Made by a program: the position numbers and the translations under genes. The notes below the pieces were generated by a model. That model worked only from the letters and a program-made list of their open reading frames with translations, did not search any database and had not been told where the DNA came from. 21,628 nt of DNA, from contig JBHJGR010000153.1 in NCBI GenBank assembly GCA_050331615.1, forward strand, positions 1 to 21,628. The letters are read 5' to 3'. Positions 1,492 through 21,628 of the stretch are shown in pieces (positions within the stretch are counted from its first letter, which is position 1; each line of letters begins with the position of its first letter). Origin of the DNA: Elainellaceae cyanobacterium (GTDB lineage Bacteria > Cyanobacteriota > Cyanobacteriia > CAKZMO01).

Positions 1492-1550
1492 ACAACACTC
1501 TCCAGAGCGTAAGATTACTCAAAAACAATCCAGAGGTAAGTTAGCTGGTC

Positions 1551-1614
1551 AGGATTAAGAATGGTTAATGTAAAGTGTTTGCAAAGGTTAGGAAGTAGTT
1601 ATGAAATGGTTAAG
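1551..1614 (-). promoter_or_regulatory. Pho-box-like repeats of the SphR/PhoB type in the promoter of the PstS-like gene.
   Basis: Read on the gene-sense (minus) strand, there are three 8-bp repeats, CTTAACCA, CATAACTA and CCTAACCT. Their plus-strand coordinates are 1607-1614, 1596-1603 and 1585-1592, giving exact 11-bp periodicity. Two further repeats, ATTAACCA and TTAATCCT, lie at 1562-1569 and 1551-1558. All match the cyanobacterial Pho-box consensus PyTTAAPyPy(T/A) and sit 60-125 bp upstream of the start codon at 1491. Confidence 0.45.
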
Positions 1615-1723
1615 AGAACTTAGCGAGGCAGATTAGATCCACCTTCGCGAGTGGGAGACAGCGATCGCCACATCTAATTCCTTTGTTGGAACTTTTTGCC
1701 AGATTTTTGCCAGACTTAAGGAG

Positions 1724-1796
1724 TTATAGCCCTACGGGCTAAGGTTTGAGTGTGGACCCCAGCGGCGCGGGGGTCCACACCTCTTGAATGTCCCAA
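1724..1796 (+). repeat. Dispersed 75-bp repeat element, copy A. It has an internal 11-bp-stem hairpin (gtgtggacccc ... ggggtccacac).
   Basis: The sequence tatagccctacgggctaaggtttgagtgtggaccccagcggcgcgggggtccacacctcttgaatgtcccaat is about 85% identical to 14338-14414 in the same orientation. Confidence 0.6.
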
Positions 1797-1809: not shown

Positions 1810-2235
1810 TTATTCGATCGCCAGAGAAACGCGACCGCCGCCGATGTCCCGCATGGTTACCAGCAGCTCGGCAACCTCGTCATAATTCAGCTCGCGATCG
1901 GCCTTGAGCCGCACGTAGCCGTCGGGATTCTCCGTCAGATAGTCCCGCATGGCCGTCGCTAGCTGTTCCTCTGCGATGGGCTCATCTTCAATCAAAATCT
2001 CACCCTGGATATTGAGACCGATGACCAGCGGCGGCGTGGAAATATCTTCTTGGGTGATGTCGCTTTCGCCCCCCTCCCCCACGTCGGGCGCGTCCACCGT
2101 CAAAATTTGCTGGCTGCTCAGACCCATCGAGATGATGATGAAAAAGGTCAAGACGGTCATCAGCACGTCCATCATGGGCACCAGGTTGACCTCCGGCACC
2201 TCCGAGGCAAATCGGCGGGAGTTACGTGACTTCAT
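1810..2235 (-). CDS. exbD: ExbD/TolR-family biopolymer transport protein.
   Basis: A 141-aa ORF beginning MKSRNSRRFASEVPEVNLVPMMDVLMTVLTFFIII. It has the ExbD single-TM topology and a conserved C-terminal region. Its start overlaps the stop of the upstream exbD by 4 bp (ATGA). Confidence 0.85.
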   Translation of the reverse strand: MKSRNSRRFASEVPEVNLVPMMDVLMTVLTFFIIISMGLSSQQILTVDAPDVGEGGESDITQEDISTPPLVIGLNIQGEILIEDEPIAEEQLATAMRDYLTENPDGYVRLKADRELNYDEVAELLVTMRDIGGGRVSLAIE

Positions 2236-6571: not shown

Positions 6572-7363
6572 ATGGCAGCGAAAGCCAAGCAGCCTAAGCG
6601 GGGGGACGTTGCCACCCAGCTCACTCAGAGTAACGCCCTTTTCAGAGGTCTAGATGCGTCCTGGCTTTCAAGCTACCTGCCCGCCGATCAGGTGACCCAG
6701 GAAAAGCTCTATTCCAATCGCCCGATCTACACTGCCTTTCGGCCAAATTCTCATCTCGAGCACCTCTATGTCGTTCTCGATGGCGGTCCAGTTGTTATCC
6801 GTAGCACGCCCCTCGACCGCATCATCGCGCTGACCTACCCTGGGGGATGTTTTGGCGCACAAAACTTACCCTTCAGCCACGGGCTGGTGTTGCGAGGGTT
6901 TCCCAGCCTGGTAGAAGCCTATAAAACTACCGACGTGCTCAAAATTCCCGTGGCGCTTGTTGAAGCAATTCACCACGAGAACGAGCTGTTTCGCCAGCGC
7001 TTTGACCTGCTGTTTGAGCTGCGGGAAAAGTTCCAGTATCATCTGCTGAACTGCAGCACCTATCCTCCCCAGGCAGTGGCGGCTCTGCTGCGGGCGCTTA
7101 TCTATCAGGAGCGATCGCTCGGCAGCCAGCCTGAACCCGACGGGACCTACCGGTTCGACCTACCGGTTGATCTCATTGCCCGCGCCAGTCAGCTCAACCA
7201 CCGCACCGTTGAACAGGTGCTCAAGGGCATGACTCAGGTGGGTCTGCTAAAATCCAGTAAATCAGATGCCAGCGGCGACTTGCTGCGCATTGTCGATCCA
7301 GAGGGCATGAAGGAGGTCTATGGGGCAACCCGCGATAAGGTGTCCTGGTGGCCCCTGAAATGA
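6572..7363 (+). CDS. Crp/Fnr-family transcriptional regulator: a cNMP-binding-like domain followed by a C-terminal HTH.
   Basis: AGGAGAA sits 6 nt upstream of the ATG. The cNMP-binding-like region runs FRGLDASW...LYVVLDGGPVVIRS...GGCFGAQNL. The C-terminal HTH is LIARASQLNHRTVEQVLKGMTQVGLL. Confidence 0.6.
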   Translation: MAAKAKQPKRGDVATQLTQSNALFRGLDASWLSSYLPADQVTQEKLYSNRPIYTAFRPNSHLEHLYVVLDGGPVVIRSTPLDRIIALTYPGGCFGAQNLPFSHGLVLRGFPSLVEAYKTTDVLKIPVALVEAIHHENELFRQRFDLLFELREKFQYHLLNCSTYPPQAVAALLRALIYQERSLGSQPEPDGTYRFDLPVDLIARASQLNHRTVEQVLKGMTQVGLLKSSKSDASGDLLRIVDPEGMKEVYGATRDKVSWWPLK

Positions 7364-7368
7364 GTCTG

Positions 7369-7521
7369 CTAGGGGCGATCGCTCTCCGCTGCGCTAACCT
7401 CTTCTACGTCTCTAGCATCCTGCCGCGCTTCCAGCACCAGGGTTCCCACAACGTATATGCCAAACAGGGCCAGCACGCTCAGCAACACCGCCATCACGGT
7501 ATTGCTTGGTCTCTTTTTCAT
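7369..7521 (-). CDS. Possible small single-TM protein of 50 aa (MKKRPSNTVMAVLLSVLALFGIYVVGTLVLEARQDARDVEEVSAAESDRP). It is not in the ORF track.
   Basis: GGAGG lies 10 nt upstream of the ATG at 7521. The N-terminus is hydrophobic. The call rests on sequence inspection only. Confidence 0.25.
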   Translation of the reverse strand: MKKRPSNTVMAVLLSVLALFGIYVVGTLVLEARQDARDVEEVSAAESDRP

Positions 7522-7593
7522 GGTGGCTATGCCTCCGTCGTCACAATGCCCTGTCAGGGGTGACGCCCTGCAAGCGGCGTCCTGAAATTCTAG

Positions 7594-7627
7594 TTGGCTT
7601 CGTGGACGTGAACGTCCACGAAGCCGC
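7594..7627. terminator. Perfect 13-bp-stem, 4-nt-loop hairpin (ggcttcgtggacg tgaa cgtccacgaagcc) lying between convergent genes. It is probably a transcription terminator or an RNA-stability element.
   Basis: A direct inverted repeat in the sequence. It lies 25 bp downstream of the stop of the 7652-8296 gene. No U-tract follows. Confidence 0.4.
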
Positions 7628-7651
7628 TAAATCGCCCAGGTTCTATAGGTC

Positions 7652-8296
7652 CTAGTTAATGAACACCTGACCATCGGGCTGGATGCGGATGACGCCTTGG
7701 GTGTCGTCAAGCCCCTGGTCTTCTTCGATGGAAATTTCCAGCATTCCGTCGGTAGTGCTCGTAATGATGTCCACCAGCCCCTCGTCCTGCCGGACCGTCG
7801 TAATCGTTGCGGGCACAGAAATACCCTGCAGGGTTGCTTCTTCCTGAGCCTGGAGGTAGCGGCGCTGGGTTTCGCCGGTAACCTCGTAGGTGATCAGGGC
7901 ATTGGTGTCATTCATAATGCGCACATCAACCGTGCCATTCGTCGGCGGCACGACAGCAACCGGCGGCAGATCAACGGCGACTCCATCGGGACCGTACTCA
8001 ACGCCAGATCCCTGAGGCACTGTCTGCATAGGCATGCCATCCATGCCGGCGCTAGCTGAAGCACCTTGGGTTTCTCCTACCAAACGGCTGTATTCATTGA
8101 GGGGGCAACCTTCGGGAACAAGTAGGTTAGAGCTAAATGGCTCTTCGTAGTAAATTCCAGGACAGGGATTGACGCCGGGCGTCTGTGCAGCTGCTTTCTG
8201 GACCACAGAGGCTCCTGCAAGTAGGCTACCTGCAGCGATACCAAGCAGTCCAGCCGAGCGAATATGTTTGATGATGGGCAAAGAGGTAAAACTCAT
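7652..8296 (-). CDS. Secreted hypothetical protein with a signal peptide and an acidic Thr/Gly/Asp-rich mature region. The start is trimmed to the ATG at 8296.
   Basis: The signal peptide is MSFTSLPIIKHIRSAGLLGIAAGSLLAGASVVQKAAAQ. An AGGAAA SD-like repeat sits directly upstream. I recognised no domain. Confidence 0.55.
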   Translation of the reverse strand: MSFTSLPIIKHIRSAGLLGIAAGSLLAGASVVQKAAAQTPGVNPCPGIYYEEPFSSNLLVPEGCPLNEYSRLVGETQGASASAGMDGMPMQTVPQGSGVEYGPDGVAVDLPPVAVVPPTNGTVDVRIMNDTNALITYEVTGETQRRYLQAQEEATLQGISVPATITTVRQDEGLVDIITSTTDGMLEISIEEDQGLDDTQGVIRIQPDGQVFIN

Positions 8297-13189: not shown

Positions 13190-13203
13190 CAACAGGAGCA
13201 TAT

Positions 13204-13220
13204 CGGCAGGCAGGATGCTT
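13204..13220. repeat. Short hairpin motif GCAGGCA-GGA-TGCTTGC (copy 1 of 3), placed right after the stop of the SGNH-like gene.
   Basis: The same 7-bp-stem, 3-nt-loop motif recurs in inverted orientation at 14566-14582 and 14596-14612. Confidence 0.5.
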
Positions 13221-13261
13221 GCGCCACGGGGCATCTATTTCCTAATCCACATCAAACGCAA

Positions 13262-13295
13262 ATCTAAAATCCAAAATCTAAAATCCAAAATCCAA
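13262..13295 (+). repeat. STRR-like heptamer array (AAAATCY) x about 4.5, abutting the ATG at 13296.
   Basis: The sequence reads aatct aaaatcc aaaatct aaaatcc aaaatcc aa ATG. A related array (ccaatcc aaaatcc ccaatcc aaaatcc ATG) precedes the start codon at 21414 on the other strand. Both are variants of STRR1 (CCCCAAT). Confidence 0.6.
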
Positions 13296-14357
13296 ATGAT
13301 TAGCAAAGCAACTTTCTGGCAATGGTTCTACCGCCGCTGGCAACCAAACCCCGCTCCCCCCGTACCGGGATATACCCTGCTCCTGCCGGTCCCCGGTGAT
13401 TTACCCGTGTTTCTCAAAATCGCTATGGAGGTTTGTTCGGCACAGCACGCCGATCGCCTGGTGGAAACCGTGGTGGTGCCCGATCAGTGGTCGCCGGACT
13501 TCAGCGATCGCCTACAGCAGTGGACCCAGACCTTTAGCCTAGACCCGGTGCGGCTGGTGCGGCTTCGCCCCATCGAGCAGCGGATTGCTCGCTACCAAAA
13601 CAATCCCACGACGCTCCACTGGCTTCAGTTAATTCGGGGGGCAGAGGCAGCCCGCACCAGTCACCTCCTCCTCCACGATGCGGATCTATTCATCACCGAA
13701 CCGGGCTTCATGGCCCAGCACTATCAAGCCTGTGCCGACCAGCGGCTTTCCTGCCTGGGCGTCAGTCCAGTGTGGGATCAGTGGTATGCCCGTCAAGGCA
13801 TCCATCACCTGACAGCCACCTGGGAGCTGATGATGGACGTGGACTGGCTGCGCCGCTTCCAGCCCTGGCAGCATCGGGGCCACGATGGCACCATTGACGG
13901 CAAGCCCCATACCTTTGACACCACCCTCTGGCCCCAGTGCCAGACCAAGCCCGATGCCATCCGTCGCCACCAGCGGGAGTGGGGCTTTGTGCATTTCAAC
14001 TATGTGATTAGCACCTACCGCCATTTTCAAAAGAGTCAGCAGCGCGATCGCCCCTTTGAGGACGTGAACTTCCGCATTTTGCTGATTCGCCTGCTGATCA
14101 ATGCCTACGATCCAAGCGACTGGCCCTACGCCGTACCGACGCTAGAGTCCCTACAGCGGGGCTTGTTGCAAGACGGCAATCCCGTCACCTATCGCCAGGC
14201 CAAAACCCATCGGCGGTACTCAGAATTTCGCCACAAGCTCAGCCAGTTCATCACCAGCGGCGTCCTCACCCCAGCCCGGCAAAGGATTCTGCGGGAGGGA
14301 ATTCGCCCCTTTGACCAGGCTCTAGCTGCCGAGCTGCAGTATAGCCCTGCGGGCTAA
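13296..14357 (+). CDS. Hypothetical protein that may be a GT-A-fold glycosyltransferase-like enzyme. The start is trimmed to the ATG at 13296, after the heptamer array.
   Basis: The arrangement YTLLLPVPGD ... ETVVVPDQWS ... HLLLHDADLF (a DxD-like motif) resembles the beta1-alpha-beta2-DxD layout of GT-A enzymes. The gene location also supports this. I recognised no family precisely. Confidence 0.4.
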   Translation: MISKATFWQWFYRRWQPNPAPPVPGYTLLLPVPGDLPVFLKIAMEVCSAQHADRLVETVVVPDQWSPDFSDRLQQWTQTFSLDPVRLVRLRPIEQRIARYQNNPTTLHWLQLIRGAEAARTSHLLLHDADLFITEPGFMAQHYQACADQRLSCLGVSPVWDQWYARQGIHHLTATWELMMDVDWLRRFQPWQHRGHDGTIDGKPHTFDTTLWPQCQTKPDAIRRHQREWGFVHFNYVISTYRHFQKSQQRDRPFEDVNFRILLIRLLINAYDPSDWPYAVPTLESLQRGLLQDGNPVTYRQAKTHRRYSEFRHKLSQFITSGVLTPARQRILREGIRPFDQALAAELQYSPAG

Positions 14358-14414
14358 GGTTTGAGTGTGGAACCCGCTCGACGTGGGGGTTTTACACCTC
14401 ATGAATGTCCTAAT
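14338..14414 (+). repeat. Dispersed 75-bp repeat element, copy B. It overlaps the last six codons and the stop of the 13296-14357 gene.
   Basis: The sequence tatagccctgcgggctaaggtttgagtgtggaacccgctcgacgtgggggttttacacctcatgaatgtcctaat matches copy A at 1724-1796. The hairpin stem is preserved through G-U-compatible and compensatory substitutions. Confidence 0.6.
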
Positions 14415-14493
14415 GCGTAAGCGTAACGCCATATCAGCAGCAGAACCGTAGGGTGGGCAGTGCCCACCATTGGCGCTGTCTGGCCTGTAGGGT

Positions 14494-14919
14494 TTAGTTG
14501 GGCGGTGCCCATCCTACTTGATGAATAATCCAGGTTAGGCGATTTCTAGAATGACCTCCGTCGCGCAGGCATCCTGCCTGCATTACAGGGAGGGGGCAAG
14601 CATCCTGCCTGCCGACGGTCACCAGCAGGCTGAGGATGAGCGTGAACCCGGCCCGCTTCAGCAGACGGCGATTTCCGGCGGCGATCGCATAGGCAATGCC
14701 AATCATCGGCCCCATCAAGGGGGCAATGATCATGGCTCCAATAACTGTAGCCGTGCTGCCCGCCAGCAGTCCCAGGCTGGAAATTGCCCCCGACAGCCCC
14801 AGCATGACAAAGTAGCTCAAAGACGGCACCGATTCCCGCCACAGCAGCCGATTGATGCCGTTGATGGACGCCGGTTTCGTTGCCAGCCACTGCCAATGCC
14901 CACTGCTGCTTTCAAACAT
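14494..14919 (-). CDS. DUF389-family hydrophobic protein. It may be truncated at its 3' end.
   Basis: The core SLSYFVMLGLSGAISSLGLLAGSTATVIGAMIIAPLMGPMIGIAYAIAAGNRRLLKRAGFTLI matches the DUF389 hydrophobic domain. The C-terminal tail (GRQDACPLPVMQAGCLRDGGHSRN...) is low-complexity, and the two GCAGGCA hairpin repeats lie within it. The longer ORF-track start at 15003 would overlap the Uma2 gene. Confidence 0.5.
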   Translation of the reverse strand: MFESSSGHWQWLATKPASINGINRLLWRESVPSLSYFVMLGLSGAISSLGLLAGSTATVIGAMIIAPLMGPMIGIAYAIAAGNRRLLKRAGFTLILSLLVTVGRQDACPLPVMQAGCLRDGGHSRNRLTWIIHQVGWAPPN

Positions 14920-21414: not shown

Positions 21415-21460
21415 GGGATTTTGGATTTTGGATTGGGGATTTTGGATTGGGGGGTTGGAT
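21415..21460 (-). repeat. STRR1-like heptamer array directly 5' of the ATG at 21414 (ccaatcc aaaatcc ccaatcc aaaatcc ATG on the minus strand).
   Basis: On the plus strand the sequence is ggattttggattggggattttggattgggg. It is related to the array at 13262-13295. Confidence 0.6.
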
Positions 21461-21519
21461 GGGTGATTGGCATCCGGTAGGGGCGATGCATTCGGCAGGG
21501 ACGTTGTCGTCACCTGCAA

Positions 21520-21628
21520 AACGTTCTGGCCGAATGCATCGCCCTTACAACCGTGGATGAGAGGCAAAACGCCTATAAACGTTCTGGCCGAATGCATCGC
21601 CCTTACAACCGTGGATGAGAGGCAAAAC
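21520..21628. repeat. Perfect 51-bp direct repeat in two copies separated by 7 bp. The array may continue past the window end. Each unit contains the right arm of a 16-bp inverted repeat whose left arm lies at 21482-21497.
   Basis: The unit aacgttctggccgaatgcatcgcccttacaaccgtggatgagaggcaaaac occurs at 21520-21570 and again at 21578-21628. The arm gggcgatgcattcggc at 21482-21497 is the reverse complement of gccgaatgcatcgccc within each unit. Confidence 0.7.

Follow-up and report, generated by a model that had tools for sequence, protein, structure and literature searches.

A dispersed hairpin repeat of an Elainellaceae cyanobacterium as a probable 94-bp TA-inserting MITE

The RUP element of Streptococcus pneumoniae inserts at TA dinucleotides, and the Correia elements of Neisseria are small MITEs flanked by a TA duplication. 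The latter have promoters and an IHF site of their own and are cleaved by RNase III; their main hairpin is formed by the terminal repeats. RUP is a 107-bp MITE that has been proposed to be mobilised in trans by IS630-Spn1 (PMC3049150). Correia elements (CREE) are present in more than 100 copies, mostly in intergenic regions, and form hairpins when transcribed (PMC10969869). Elements of the IS630, ISY100 and Tc1-mariner type target TA almost exclusively, and the TA is duplicated on insertion (PMC2170065). A cyanobacterial representative of this IS630/Tc1-mariner group, ISY100 (ISTcSa) of Synechocystis, needs only its terminal inverted repeats in cis, that is, only its terminal ~24–30 bp (PMC2170065).

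Two related repeats, hereafter copies A and B, were investigated in a stretch of Elainellaceae cyanobacterium DNA of 21,628 nt (the complete contig JBHJGR010000153.1; hereafter the window). We consider it likely, with a probability of about 0.85, that both are copies of a selfish, non-coding, 94-bp MITE that inserts at TA and would most likely be moved in trans by an IS630/Tc1-mariner-type transposase. In its behavior the element appears closest to RUP and the Correia elements, and by host phylum to Nezha and the Microcystis MITEs. Like RUP, it is about 100 bp in length, non-coding, highly base-paired and present in high copy number, and it has terminal inverted repeats; insertion into other repeats, known for RUP (PMC10969869), was also observed here. 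The two have no sequence similarity, however, and their hosts belong to different phyla, and RUP has a known partner IS whose ends match its own. Unlike the Correia elements, the present element showed no promoter- or terminator-like site, and its main hairpin is internal, separate from the short terminal repeats. Nezha of Anabaena and Nostoc and the MaeMITEs of Microcystis are likewise cyanobacterial and share with it terminal inverted repeats, direct repeats, a stable structure, filled and empty orthologous sites and occasional fusions with host ORFs (PMC3184786). They are longer (130–435 bp vs. 94 bp) and unrelated in sequence, and Nezha shares its ends with ISNpu3. ISY100 also inserts at TA with duplication, although it is autonomous (947 bp, with a 282-aa transposase and 24-bp repeats), and its mechanism is attributed to the MITE on the strength of the TA duplication. 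REP and REPIN sequences are short, abundant, hairpin-forming extragenic repeats too, but they lack the target-site duplication and the pair of terminal inverted repeats that the element has.

Both window copies lie on the + strand and are identical at 63 of 75 alignment columns (84%, MAFFT), close to the 85% given in the initial annotation, which had also described them as having the same orientation. A 21-nt core, GGGCTAAGGTTTGAGTGTGGA, is common to both, with a chance expectation of 0.00 in shuffles of the window. Each copy contains a long central hairpin preceded by a small one at the 5' side (TAGCCC-nnn-GGGCTA). In copy A, folding confirmed the previously noted perfect 11-bp central stem (GTGTGGACCCC/GGGGTCCACAC). 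The central stem of copy B pairs on the + strand by way of two G·U pairs and folds more poorly on the − strand. As RNA, the window copies fold with z = −2.6 and −1.95 relative to shuffled sequences. Mismatch searches and a covariance model run with filters off found no further copies in the window beyond A and B. The two copies recur with 100% identity in contig Ga0311279_123209 of JGI metagenome sample 3300029624, which was assembled independently, and this rules out an assembly artefact. Copy A is also where three short-read (Logan) contigs from this organism stop, either inside it or at its edge; multi-copy repeats break assemblies in this way.

Copies at other sites were sought with the 18-mer GCTAAGGTTTGAGTGTGG in one genome per prokaryotic species. 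At least 72 loci matched and, among the matches listed, 70 were in JAYKGU01 (GCA_035285585.1, "MAG: Synechococcales cyanobacterium isolate 1108005"). The other two listed, in an Aliirhizobium and a Silvanigrellaceae genome, were rejected as carriers, as they had only the 18-mer in common with the element. A covariance model built from the JAYKGU01 copies placed about 75 full or nearly full-length copies in 517 kb of this MAG, eight or nine of which lacked the exact 18-mer; about 80 or more sharply bounded copies are carried by the MAG. The copies have a mean identity of 95% to the consensus and three are identical to it, which points to recent activity of the family. Distant relatives are also present in the MAG, including L073:7159-7252 and L070:2750-2841, which have the same layout with a central stem of other bases (GGCTGAATCC/GGATTCAGCC and CGGGCGAAT/ATTCACCCG). 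A further candidate, L082:18793 (23 bits), proved to be an unrelated terminator-like hairpin. Using a pattern in which hairpin 2 was left free, a viral scan gave no matches and a metagenome scan gave five unrelated ones; the latter was insensitive and did not return the JGI contig that carries both copies. The full consensus, searched in distant mode, had no match among PLSDB plasmids, and no paper in the full-text literature contained the core sequence. In these searches no description of the family came to light, and it appears to be a new member of a familiar class of selfish DNA.

When the JAYKGU01 copies were aligned with their flanks, the common stretch was exactly 94 nt and the flanks were unrelated on both sides. 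The true repeat unit is thus a non-coding 94-nt sequence with three hairpins and a TA at either end. The 75-bp unit described earlier ended 19 nt short, missing hairpin 3 and the right terminal repeat. The family consensus is TATAGCCCTACGGGCTAAGGTTTGAGTGTGGAACCCCCGCGACGCGGGGGTTCCACACCTCTTGAATGTCCTAACGCGAAAGCGTAACGCCATA. In it, TAGCCC-TAC-GGGCTA forms hairpin 1; hairpin 2 consists of an almost perfect 16-bp palindrome, GTGTGGAACCCCCGCG-A/T-CGCGGGGGTTCCACAC, lengthened by GAG/CTC; and ACGC-GAAA-GCGT forms hairpin 3. Folded as single-stranded DNA, the consensus has an energy of −29.3 kcal/mol (z = −7.5 vs. shuffles). The terminal inverted repeats are 13 nt long and imperfect (TATAGCCCTACGG ... 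GCGTA[A/G]CGC[C/T]ATA). Specifically, the left end matches the reverse complement of the right end at 11 of 13 positions (TATAGCGCTACGC) or at 9 of 13 (TATGGCGTTACGC), depending on the sub-family, and the end motif can be written as TA-TAGCCCTACGG...CGTARCGCYA-TA. Of 66 copies, 64 have TA as the outermost dinucleotide at the left end and 63 at the right end, with no conservation further out in the flanks. Sub-families differ chiefly in the linker that follows hairpin 2 and toward the right end. The unit has no coding capacity, its left end containing stops in all three frames within 24 nt, and its size is below the ~300-bp limit for MITEs.

Copy B is complete, aligning end to end with the MAG copies over model positions 1–94 (99.2 bits, E = 1.3e-19). 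Copy A scored 74.9 bits with the covariance model, in which its last 20 positions were poorly aligned, and nhmmer matched it to model positions 1–77. Its right end (~20 nt) is lost or scrambled, and the DNA from there to the exbD stop codon (1810–1812) is not recognisable as element. The coordinates of both copies and of the genes beside them are collected in Table 1.

Table 1. Positions in the window of the two element copies, their parts and the adjoining genes.
Feature	Coordinates	Strand	Remarks
Copy A	1725..~1799	+	Left ~77 model positions: left TA, hairpin 1 (1727-1741), hairpin 2 (1748-1783)
exbD	1810..2235	-	Stop codon separated by ~10 nt from the last recognisable part of copy A; copy A oriented opposite to the gene
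Conserved hypothetical gene	13296..14357	+	353 aa; last four codons (SPAG) and stop from copy B
Copy B	14340..14433	+	Full-length MITE including flanking TAs (14340-14341, 14432-14433); ~90% identical to family consensus
Copy B hairpin 1	14342..14356	+	TAGCCC-TGC-GGGCTA; overlaps left terminal inverted repeat; holds stop TAA 14355-14357
Copy B central hairpin 2	14363..14400	+	GAGTGTGGAACCC...GGGTTTTACACCTC; two G·T wobbles, apical part damaged
Copy B hairpin 3	14413..14424	+	Consensus ACGC-GAAA-GCGT, here ATGC-GTAA-GCGT; followed by right terminal inverted repeat CGTAACGCCA+TA
Right TA duplication and TCAGCAGCAG	14432..14442	+	Displaced remnant of original frame (Y)QQQ; matches ortholog YQQV*

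The initial annotation had proposed counting copies elsewhere by BLASTN and looking for target-site duplications. Many more copies were found, as described above, and the second check was also positive, with TA as the duplicated sequence. In an empty-site test, the 40 nt on each side of an element were joined through a single TA and matched against the collected DNA. The joined flanks of five MAG loci (L005, L021, L027, L029 and L033) matched more than 25 uninterrupted paralogous sites with no gap across the junction. Three of these copies (L005, L021 and L027) are at the same TA of a second palindromic repeat family, the one at L027 in the opposite orientation, and the empty site in that family reads ...CCCCGGTTTTC-TA-ACATGAATTTAAT.... 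The joined flanks of L029 and L033 gave matches comparable to these, and L011 had four extra bases at the joined junction. Because flanks joined with a single TA reproduce empty sites, the element duplicates TA on insertion. The element is small and non-coding, with inverted ends, a target duplication, many copies and both filled and empty sites, which together identify it as a prokaryotic MITE (PMC3184786, PMC10969869). A MITE-like small repeat had been one of the options in the initial annotation, and this option is upheld by the many additional copies and by the TA duplication.

The window copies show the consequences of such insertions for host genes. As proposed from the first reading of the sequence, copy B provides the C-terminus and the stop codon of the 13296–14357 gene. 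The gene ends ...CAG TAT AGC CCT GCG GGC TAA (Q-Y-S-P-A-G-stop, with the stop codon at 14355–14357); SPAG and the stop come from the element, and the Tyr codon TAT consists of the host TA and the first base of the element, T. Removal of copy B and one TA gives ...GAGCTGCAG TAT CAG CAG CAG (...GAG CTG CAG TAT...), i.e., ELQYQQQ. The closest homolog, P0002 on JAYKGU010000174.1, is 83% identical and has the C-terminus ...PFDQALAPEFRYQQV (...EFRYQQV), encoded by ...CGA TAC CAG CAG GTC TAA; in JAYKGU01 the 3' end of the ortholog lacks the element. Since deletion of the element and one TA restores an ortholog-like ELQYQQQ, copy B evidently entered the TA of a Tyr codon. This would have occurred six codons before the end of the gene, with SPAG-stop taking the place of the non-conserved tail. 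End positions vary among the homologs, the majority stopping some 10 residues sooner (...FDRAFG), so the tail is not conserved and looks dispensable. ORFs at the MAG loci L018 and L068 are terminated in the same frame of the element as at copy B (..SPTG*). Next to copy B, at 14447–14520, are palindromes tagged with GTAGGG.

Copy A is located between exbD (stop at 1810) and pstS (start at 1491), both on the − strand, in agreement with its earlier placement in the exbD–pstS intergenic region. The syntenic gene order in JAYKGU01 is lgt, phosphodiesterase, exbB, exbD, exbD, pstS. ExbD of the window is 89% identical to that of the MAG, with the same C-terminus (...VSLAIE*). The exbD–pstS spacer measures 318 nt in the window and 179 nt, without the element, in the MAG (locus L080). 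The 125 nt proximal to the pstS promoter are almost identical in the two, whereas the rest of the spacer has diverged. Owing to this divergence and to the loss of its right end, copy A can be described only as absent from the ortholog; insertion into the TA within the stop codon of exbD would be speculative. Copy A would have inserted just downstream of exbD and upstream of the pstS promoter, and its right end would have been lost later. Because both orthologous sites in JAYKGU01 are empty, both window insertions are specific to the window's lineage and would have arisen after its split from the JAYKGU01 lineage.

The element would be inserted by cut-and-paste into a TA dinucleotide, which becomes duplicated, by a DDE transposase of IS630/Tc1-mariner type supplied in trans; the TA duplication was observed directly, and the type of the transposase would follow from it. 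In the JAYKGU01 lineage, the family would recently have amplified at different sites, reaching about 80 or more copies. Among bacterial insertion sequences, near-exclusive insertion at TA with a 2-bp TA duplication is the hallmark of IS630/Tc1-mariner elements, as demonstrated for ISY100 (PMC2170065), and for this reason we lean toward an IS630-type transposase acting in trans as the driver. Some IS5-group elements also give 2–4-bp duplications. No autonomous element with matching ends or transposase was identified in ~520 kb of JAYKGU01 and ~31 kb of the window's genome, nor did searches for unpaired left or right ends and for inverted pairs of terminal repeats 300–3000 bp apart reveal an autonomous partner. 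TA-flanked inverted repeats 700–2500 bp apart included no pair around a transposase. In a Pfam scan, the multi-copy ORFs of the MAG comprised methyltransferases, GSTs, Uma2 and a histidine kinase, with no transposase and no Y1/RAYT-like ORF. MAG binning often loses IS-bearing contigs, and the absence of a partner is consequently weak evidence. Three loci were rejected as candidates. At L054, an apparent left end with other downstream DNA was a copy disrupted by a nested repeat; L013:2328 was not an IS but a partial look-alike upstream of rpsP; and at L065 two inverted copies enclose 907 bp, within which a 206-aa ORF has no Pfam match and is no recognisable transposase.

The initial annotation had read the stem differences between copies A and B as compensatory and as a sign of selection on structure and not of drift. 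Relative to the consensus (GGAACCCCC...GGGGGTTCC), both arms of copy A are shorter by 1 nt at matching positions (AA to A and TT to T), and copy B has two one-sided, uncompensated C-to-T changes. The G-U pairing described for copy B is real, but there was no compensatory substitution of C-G by A-U. The broader claim of selection was tested on a three-hairpin structure in 66 distinct MAG copies, in which the search pattern had kept the 5' arm of hairpin 2 constant, and it is only weakly supported. Among these copies 96.3% of all cells were paired, as expected for young copies. Changes on both sides of a stem pair were found in 5 cells vs. 1.6 expected from column shuffles (8 of 500 shuffles were as high), a modest excess. 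One-sided stem changes gave 53 G·U, 40 A·C and 26 other cells. However, transitions in the partner of the pattern-fixed 5' arm are forced to appear as G·U, and when this hairpin 2 arm was set aside the counts were 34 G·U vs. 40 A·C. G·U is thus no more common than A·C, and neither strand is favored as RNA. Private substitutions (variants in ≤2 copies) were as dense in stems as elsewhere, at 1.33 vs. 1.06 per column (Mann–Whitney p = 0.26), so inserted copies decay neutrally and drift freely. Variants shared by whole sub-families were about half as frequent in stems as elsewhere (2.9 vs. 5.4 per column). Because such variants avoid stems and distant relatives retain the hairpin, the central hairpin appears to be a conserved feature of elements still able to spread and not of individual insertions. 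Inserted copies would then be selfish DNA, with hairpins kept only in those copies able to found new sub-families.

Compensated changes, although rare, were nevertheless observed within the family. In the clearest cases, L062 has AA/TT changed to CC/GG, L041 has C-G changed to G-C, and L065:7843, which is outside the ascertained set, has G-C changed to T-A; at L056:4189 an extra C is matched by an extra G. Quasi-palindrome correction, in which repair or replication is templated by the hairpin, can introduce matched changes into both arms of a palindrome in one step. The compensated changes are most simply read as such correction of the DNA or as inheritance from variant source copies. A simple IS630-type model leaves the persistence of the central hairpin and the avoidance of stems by sub-family variants unexplained, given that ISY100 needs only its termini. 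An unlikely but more far-reaching reading is that the central hairpin is a functional module of a wider MITE superfamily, either needed in cis for a TA-duplicating, structure-reading enzyme or with a role at the RNA level that aids persistence. The features behind it are that stem and position are kept while the sequence changes between families, and that matched indels and substitutions occur in both arms. If it were true, the family would be mechanistically unlike classic IS630-type MITEs, which need only terminal repeats.

Somewhat less likely still is that a selfish MITE has been co-opted at the two window sites, with copy A acting between exbD and the Pho-regulated promoter of pstS, as an insulator or as a hairpin for RNA processing, and copy B as a functional new C-terminus and 3' end. 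MITEs are known to alter the expression of neighboring genes (PMC10969869), the 11-bp stem of copy A is perfect despite the lost right end, and the element frame used by copy B also ends the ORFs at L018 and L068. Two populations assembled independently have both copies in identical form, but these populations are nearly identical overall (1 aa difference in 353), so that this identity is uninformative on constraint. The variable ends of the homologs, most of them about 10 residues earlier, make the tail look dispensable, and to judge from the orthologous sequences the genes would function without either insertion.

We also evaluated a functional structured RNA family (small RNAs, terminators or elements that stabilise a 3' UTR) whose hairpins are selected as RNA, which we regard as very unlikely. 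It could account for the consensus and both window copies folding far better than shuffled sequences, for the better pairing of copy B on the + strand through G·U, for the GAAA loop of hairpin 3 and for the compensated changes at L041, L062, L065:7843 and L056:4189. Nonetheless, Rfam 15 gave no matches in the window at gathering scores and none on copy B at E ≤ 1, and a consensus copy returned generic GC-hairpin matches alone, at least 24 bits below gathering scores. Around either copy, no terminator-like sites were found on either strand, with no U-tract (T-run) after the hairpins, and a promoter scan found no promoter-like sites. The distribution of the 66 MAG copies was informative as well. 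By a simple greedy ORF caller, 63 were intergenic and three overlapped the 3' ends of ORFs. Intergenic contexts were tandem in 27 cases, divergent in 14 and convergent in 12, near the random 2:1:1, and in tandem contexts nine copies had the same orientation as the neighboring genes vs. 18 the opposite one, again with the simple greedy ORF caller. There is thus no orientation or genomic-context bias among these copies. A dedicated role as a terminator or in 3' stability is unlikely, because such elements would avoid divergent regions and show one orientation, and here divergent promoter regions are as common as convergent 3' regions. Private substitutions are equally dense in stems and non-stems, with no preferred strand, and the sharp ends and TA duplication show that the copies have spread as DNA. 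Of the options listed in the initial annotation, neither a terminator or stability element nor a small-RNA family is supported, given the missing U-tract on either strand, the lack of an Rfam match and the absence of orientation and context bias in the 66 copies.

Least credible of all is a palindromic repeat of the REP/REPIN kind, dispersed by a RAYT or an IS200/IS605-type single-strand (Y1) transposase that reads hairpins: the prominent hairpins, hairpin 1 at the very end of the element, the GTAGGG-tagged palindromes next to copy B (14447–14520) and the central hairpin conserved in relatives would suit it, but TA is duplicated at every testable site, whereas REP and IS200/IS605 insertion to our knowledge makes no target duplication, the ends of the element are inverted repeats of each other, and no Y1 transposase gene was among the multi-copy ORFs.

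The most unusual aspect of this MITE family is the central hairpin, which persists across diverged relatives and occasionally shows changes matched from arm to arm. It is unlikely that this persistence reflects a new mechanism. Differences of the kind seen between copies A and B, which appear "compensatory" in palindromic repeats, do not alone prove selection on RNA structure. For the organism itself, the element explains the odd C-terminus ...YSPAG, the enlarged exbD–pstS spacer and the contig breaks in short-read assemblies. The family could be of use for marking strains and as bait in finding an active IS630-type transposase, and it offers a clean consensus, a proven TA duplication and recent activity in poorly studied filamentous cyanobacteria.

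The repeat copies at the exbD-pstS spacer (copy A) and at the 3′ end of the conserved hypothetical gene 13296-14357 (copy B) were examined together with the other repeats of the window and with loci of a related cyanobacterial MAG, JAYKGU01 (loci prefixed L). Both copies belong to a 94-bp non-coding, TA-inserting MITE whose second hairpin forms a central palindrome. Coordinates of the repeats are collected in the table.

Coordinates of repeats in the window and in loci of MAG JAYKGU01
Feature	Location	Position	Remark
Tandem duplication of TTTTTGCCAGA, two units	window	1693-1715	adjoins copy A at its left end
Palindromic repeat GCAGGCAGGATGC(C/T)TGC	window	13203-13229; 14558-14615	inverted orientation, either side of gene 13296-14357
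Heptamer run AAAATCC/AAAATCT	window	13253-13296	immediately 5′ of ATG at 13296
GTAGGG-tagged palindromes GTAGGGTGGGCAGTGCCCACC and GTAGGGTTTAGTTGGGCGGTGCCCATCCTAC	window	14447-14475; 14487-14520	directly 3′ of copy B
GGATTTT repeats	window	21416-21449	reverse complement of heptamer run
29-nt inverted partner of 52-nt repeat	window	21477-21505	
52-nt perfect direct repeat	window	21519-21570; 21577-21628	second unit reaches last base of contig
Inverted MITE pair around 907 bp	L065 (JAYKGU010000023.1)	6842-7936	1095 bp in total
49-nt MITE derivative	L006	1156-1204	both ends kept, hairpin 2 absent
80-nt MITE derivative	L064	2773-2852	top of hairpin 2 absent
Second palindromic family, example copies	L072; L041; L073	5286-5370; 7649-7720; 3037-3107	
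Diverged MITE relatives or partial look-alikes	L073; L070; L064	7159-7252; 2750-2841; ~104-172	
Further relatives or partial look-alikes	L073; L056; L013	5352-5422; 2809-2840; 2301-2353	

In the exbD-pstS spacer, the 125 nt upstream of pstS (1492-1616, minus strand) are nearly identical to the orthologous region of the MAG, and the remaining spacer has diverged. The initial annotation had placed Pho boxes next to copy A in this spacer, in agreement with the repeated Pho-box-like words CTTAACCA, CCTAACCT, ATTAACCA and CTTAATCC found within these 125 nt. Copy A lies ~110 nt upstream of these words, and the part of the spacer that carries the two TTTTTGCCAGA units (1693-1715) is not represented in the orthologous spacer of the MAG.

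Gene 13296-14357, which takes its last codons and stop from copy B, is surrounded by further repeats. The heptamer repeats upstream of it and near the contig end resemble the short tandem heptamers typical of cyanobacteria. The GCAGGCAGGATGC(C/T)TGC palindromes, with arms of 23-24 nt, 92-96% complementarity and two copies 3′ of the gene, are probably another small dispersed repeat family, and the GTAGGG-tagged palindromes look REP-like. The pre-insertion reading frame of the gene, as reconstructed, would pass through both GTAGGG-tagged palindromes; an earlier insertion may therefore already have displaced the ancestral stop. The end of the contig at 21628 was probably caused by the repeat at 21477-21628.

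Within the MAG, the MITE was also found in other arrangements. The outer ends of the inverted pair at L065 are identical over 30 nt and have a TA at both sides, a layout that resembles a composite transposon; a 206-aa ORF inside the 907-bp interval had no Pfam match. The two shortened elements, at L006 and L064, are internal-deletion derivatives, and their deletions are centred on the palindrome. The JGI metagenome contig Ga0311279_123209, which carries both window copies, contains two exact matches to GCCCTNNGGGCTRAGGTTTGAG yet was absent from the results of the metagenome-contig scan with that sequence, so negatives from that collection call for caution.

The DNA searched contains more than 25 copies of a second, longer palindromic repeat family (...GAACTGCATTGAAAAACGAAGGTTAGAAAACCGGGGGAGCGCCCCGGTTTTCTAACATGAATTTAATTGTGCTGACCTACTTA), which occurs at MAG loci. 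This family frequently abuts the 94-bp MITE, and one TA within it is a recurrent target of the MITE. The six diverged relatives or partial look-alikes of the MITE, one of which (L013) sits upstream of rpsP, have a common left end, TA-TAGC[C/T]CTA..GGCT.AGG, and differ in internal sequence, which suggests a wider superfamily with a shared terminal motif.
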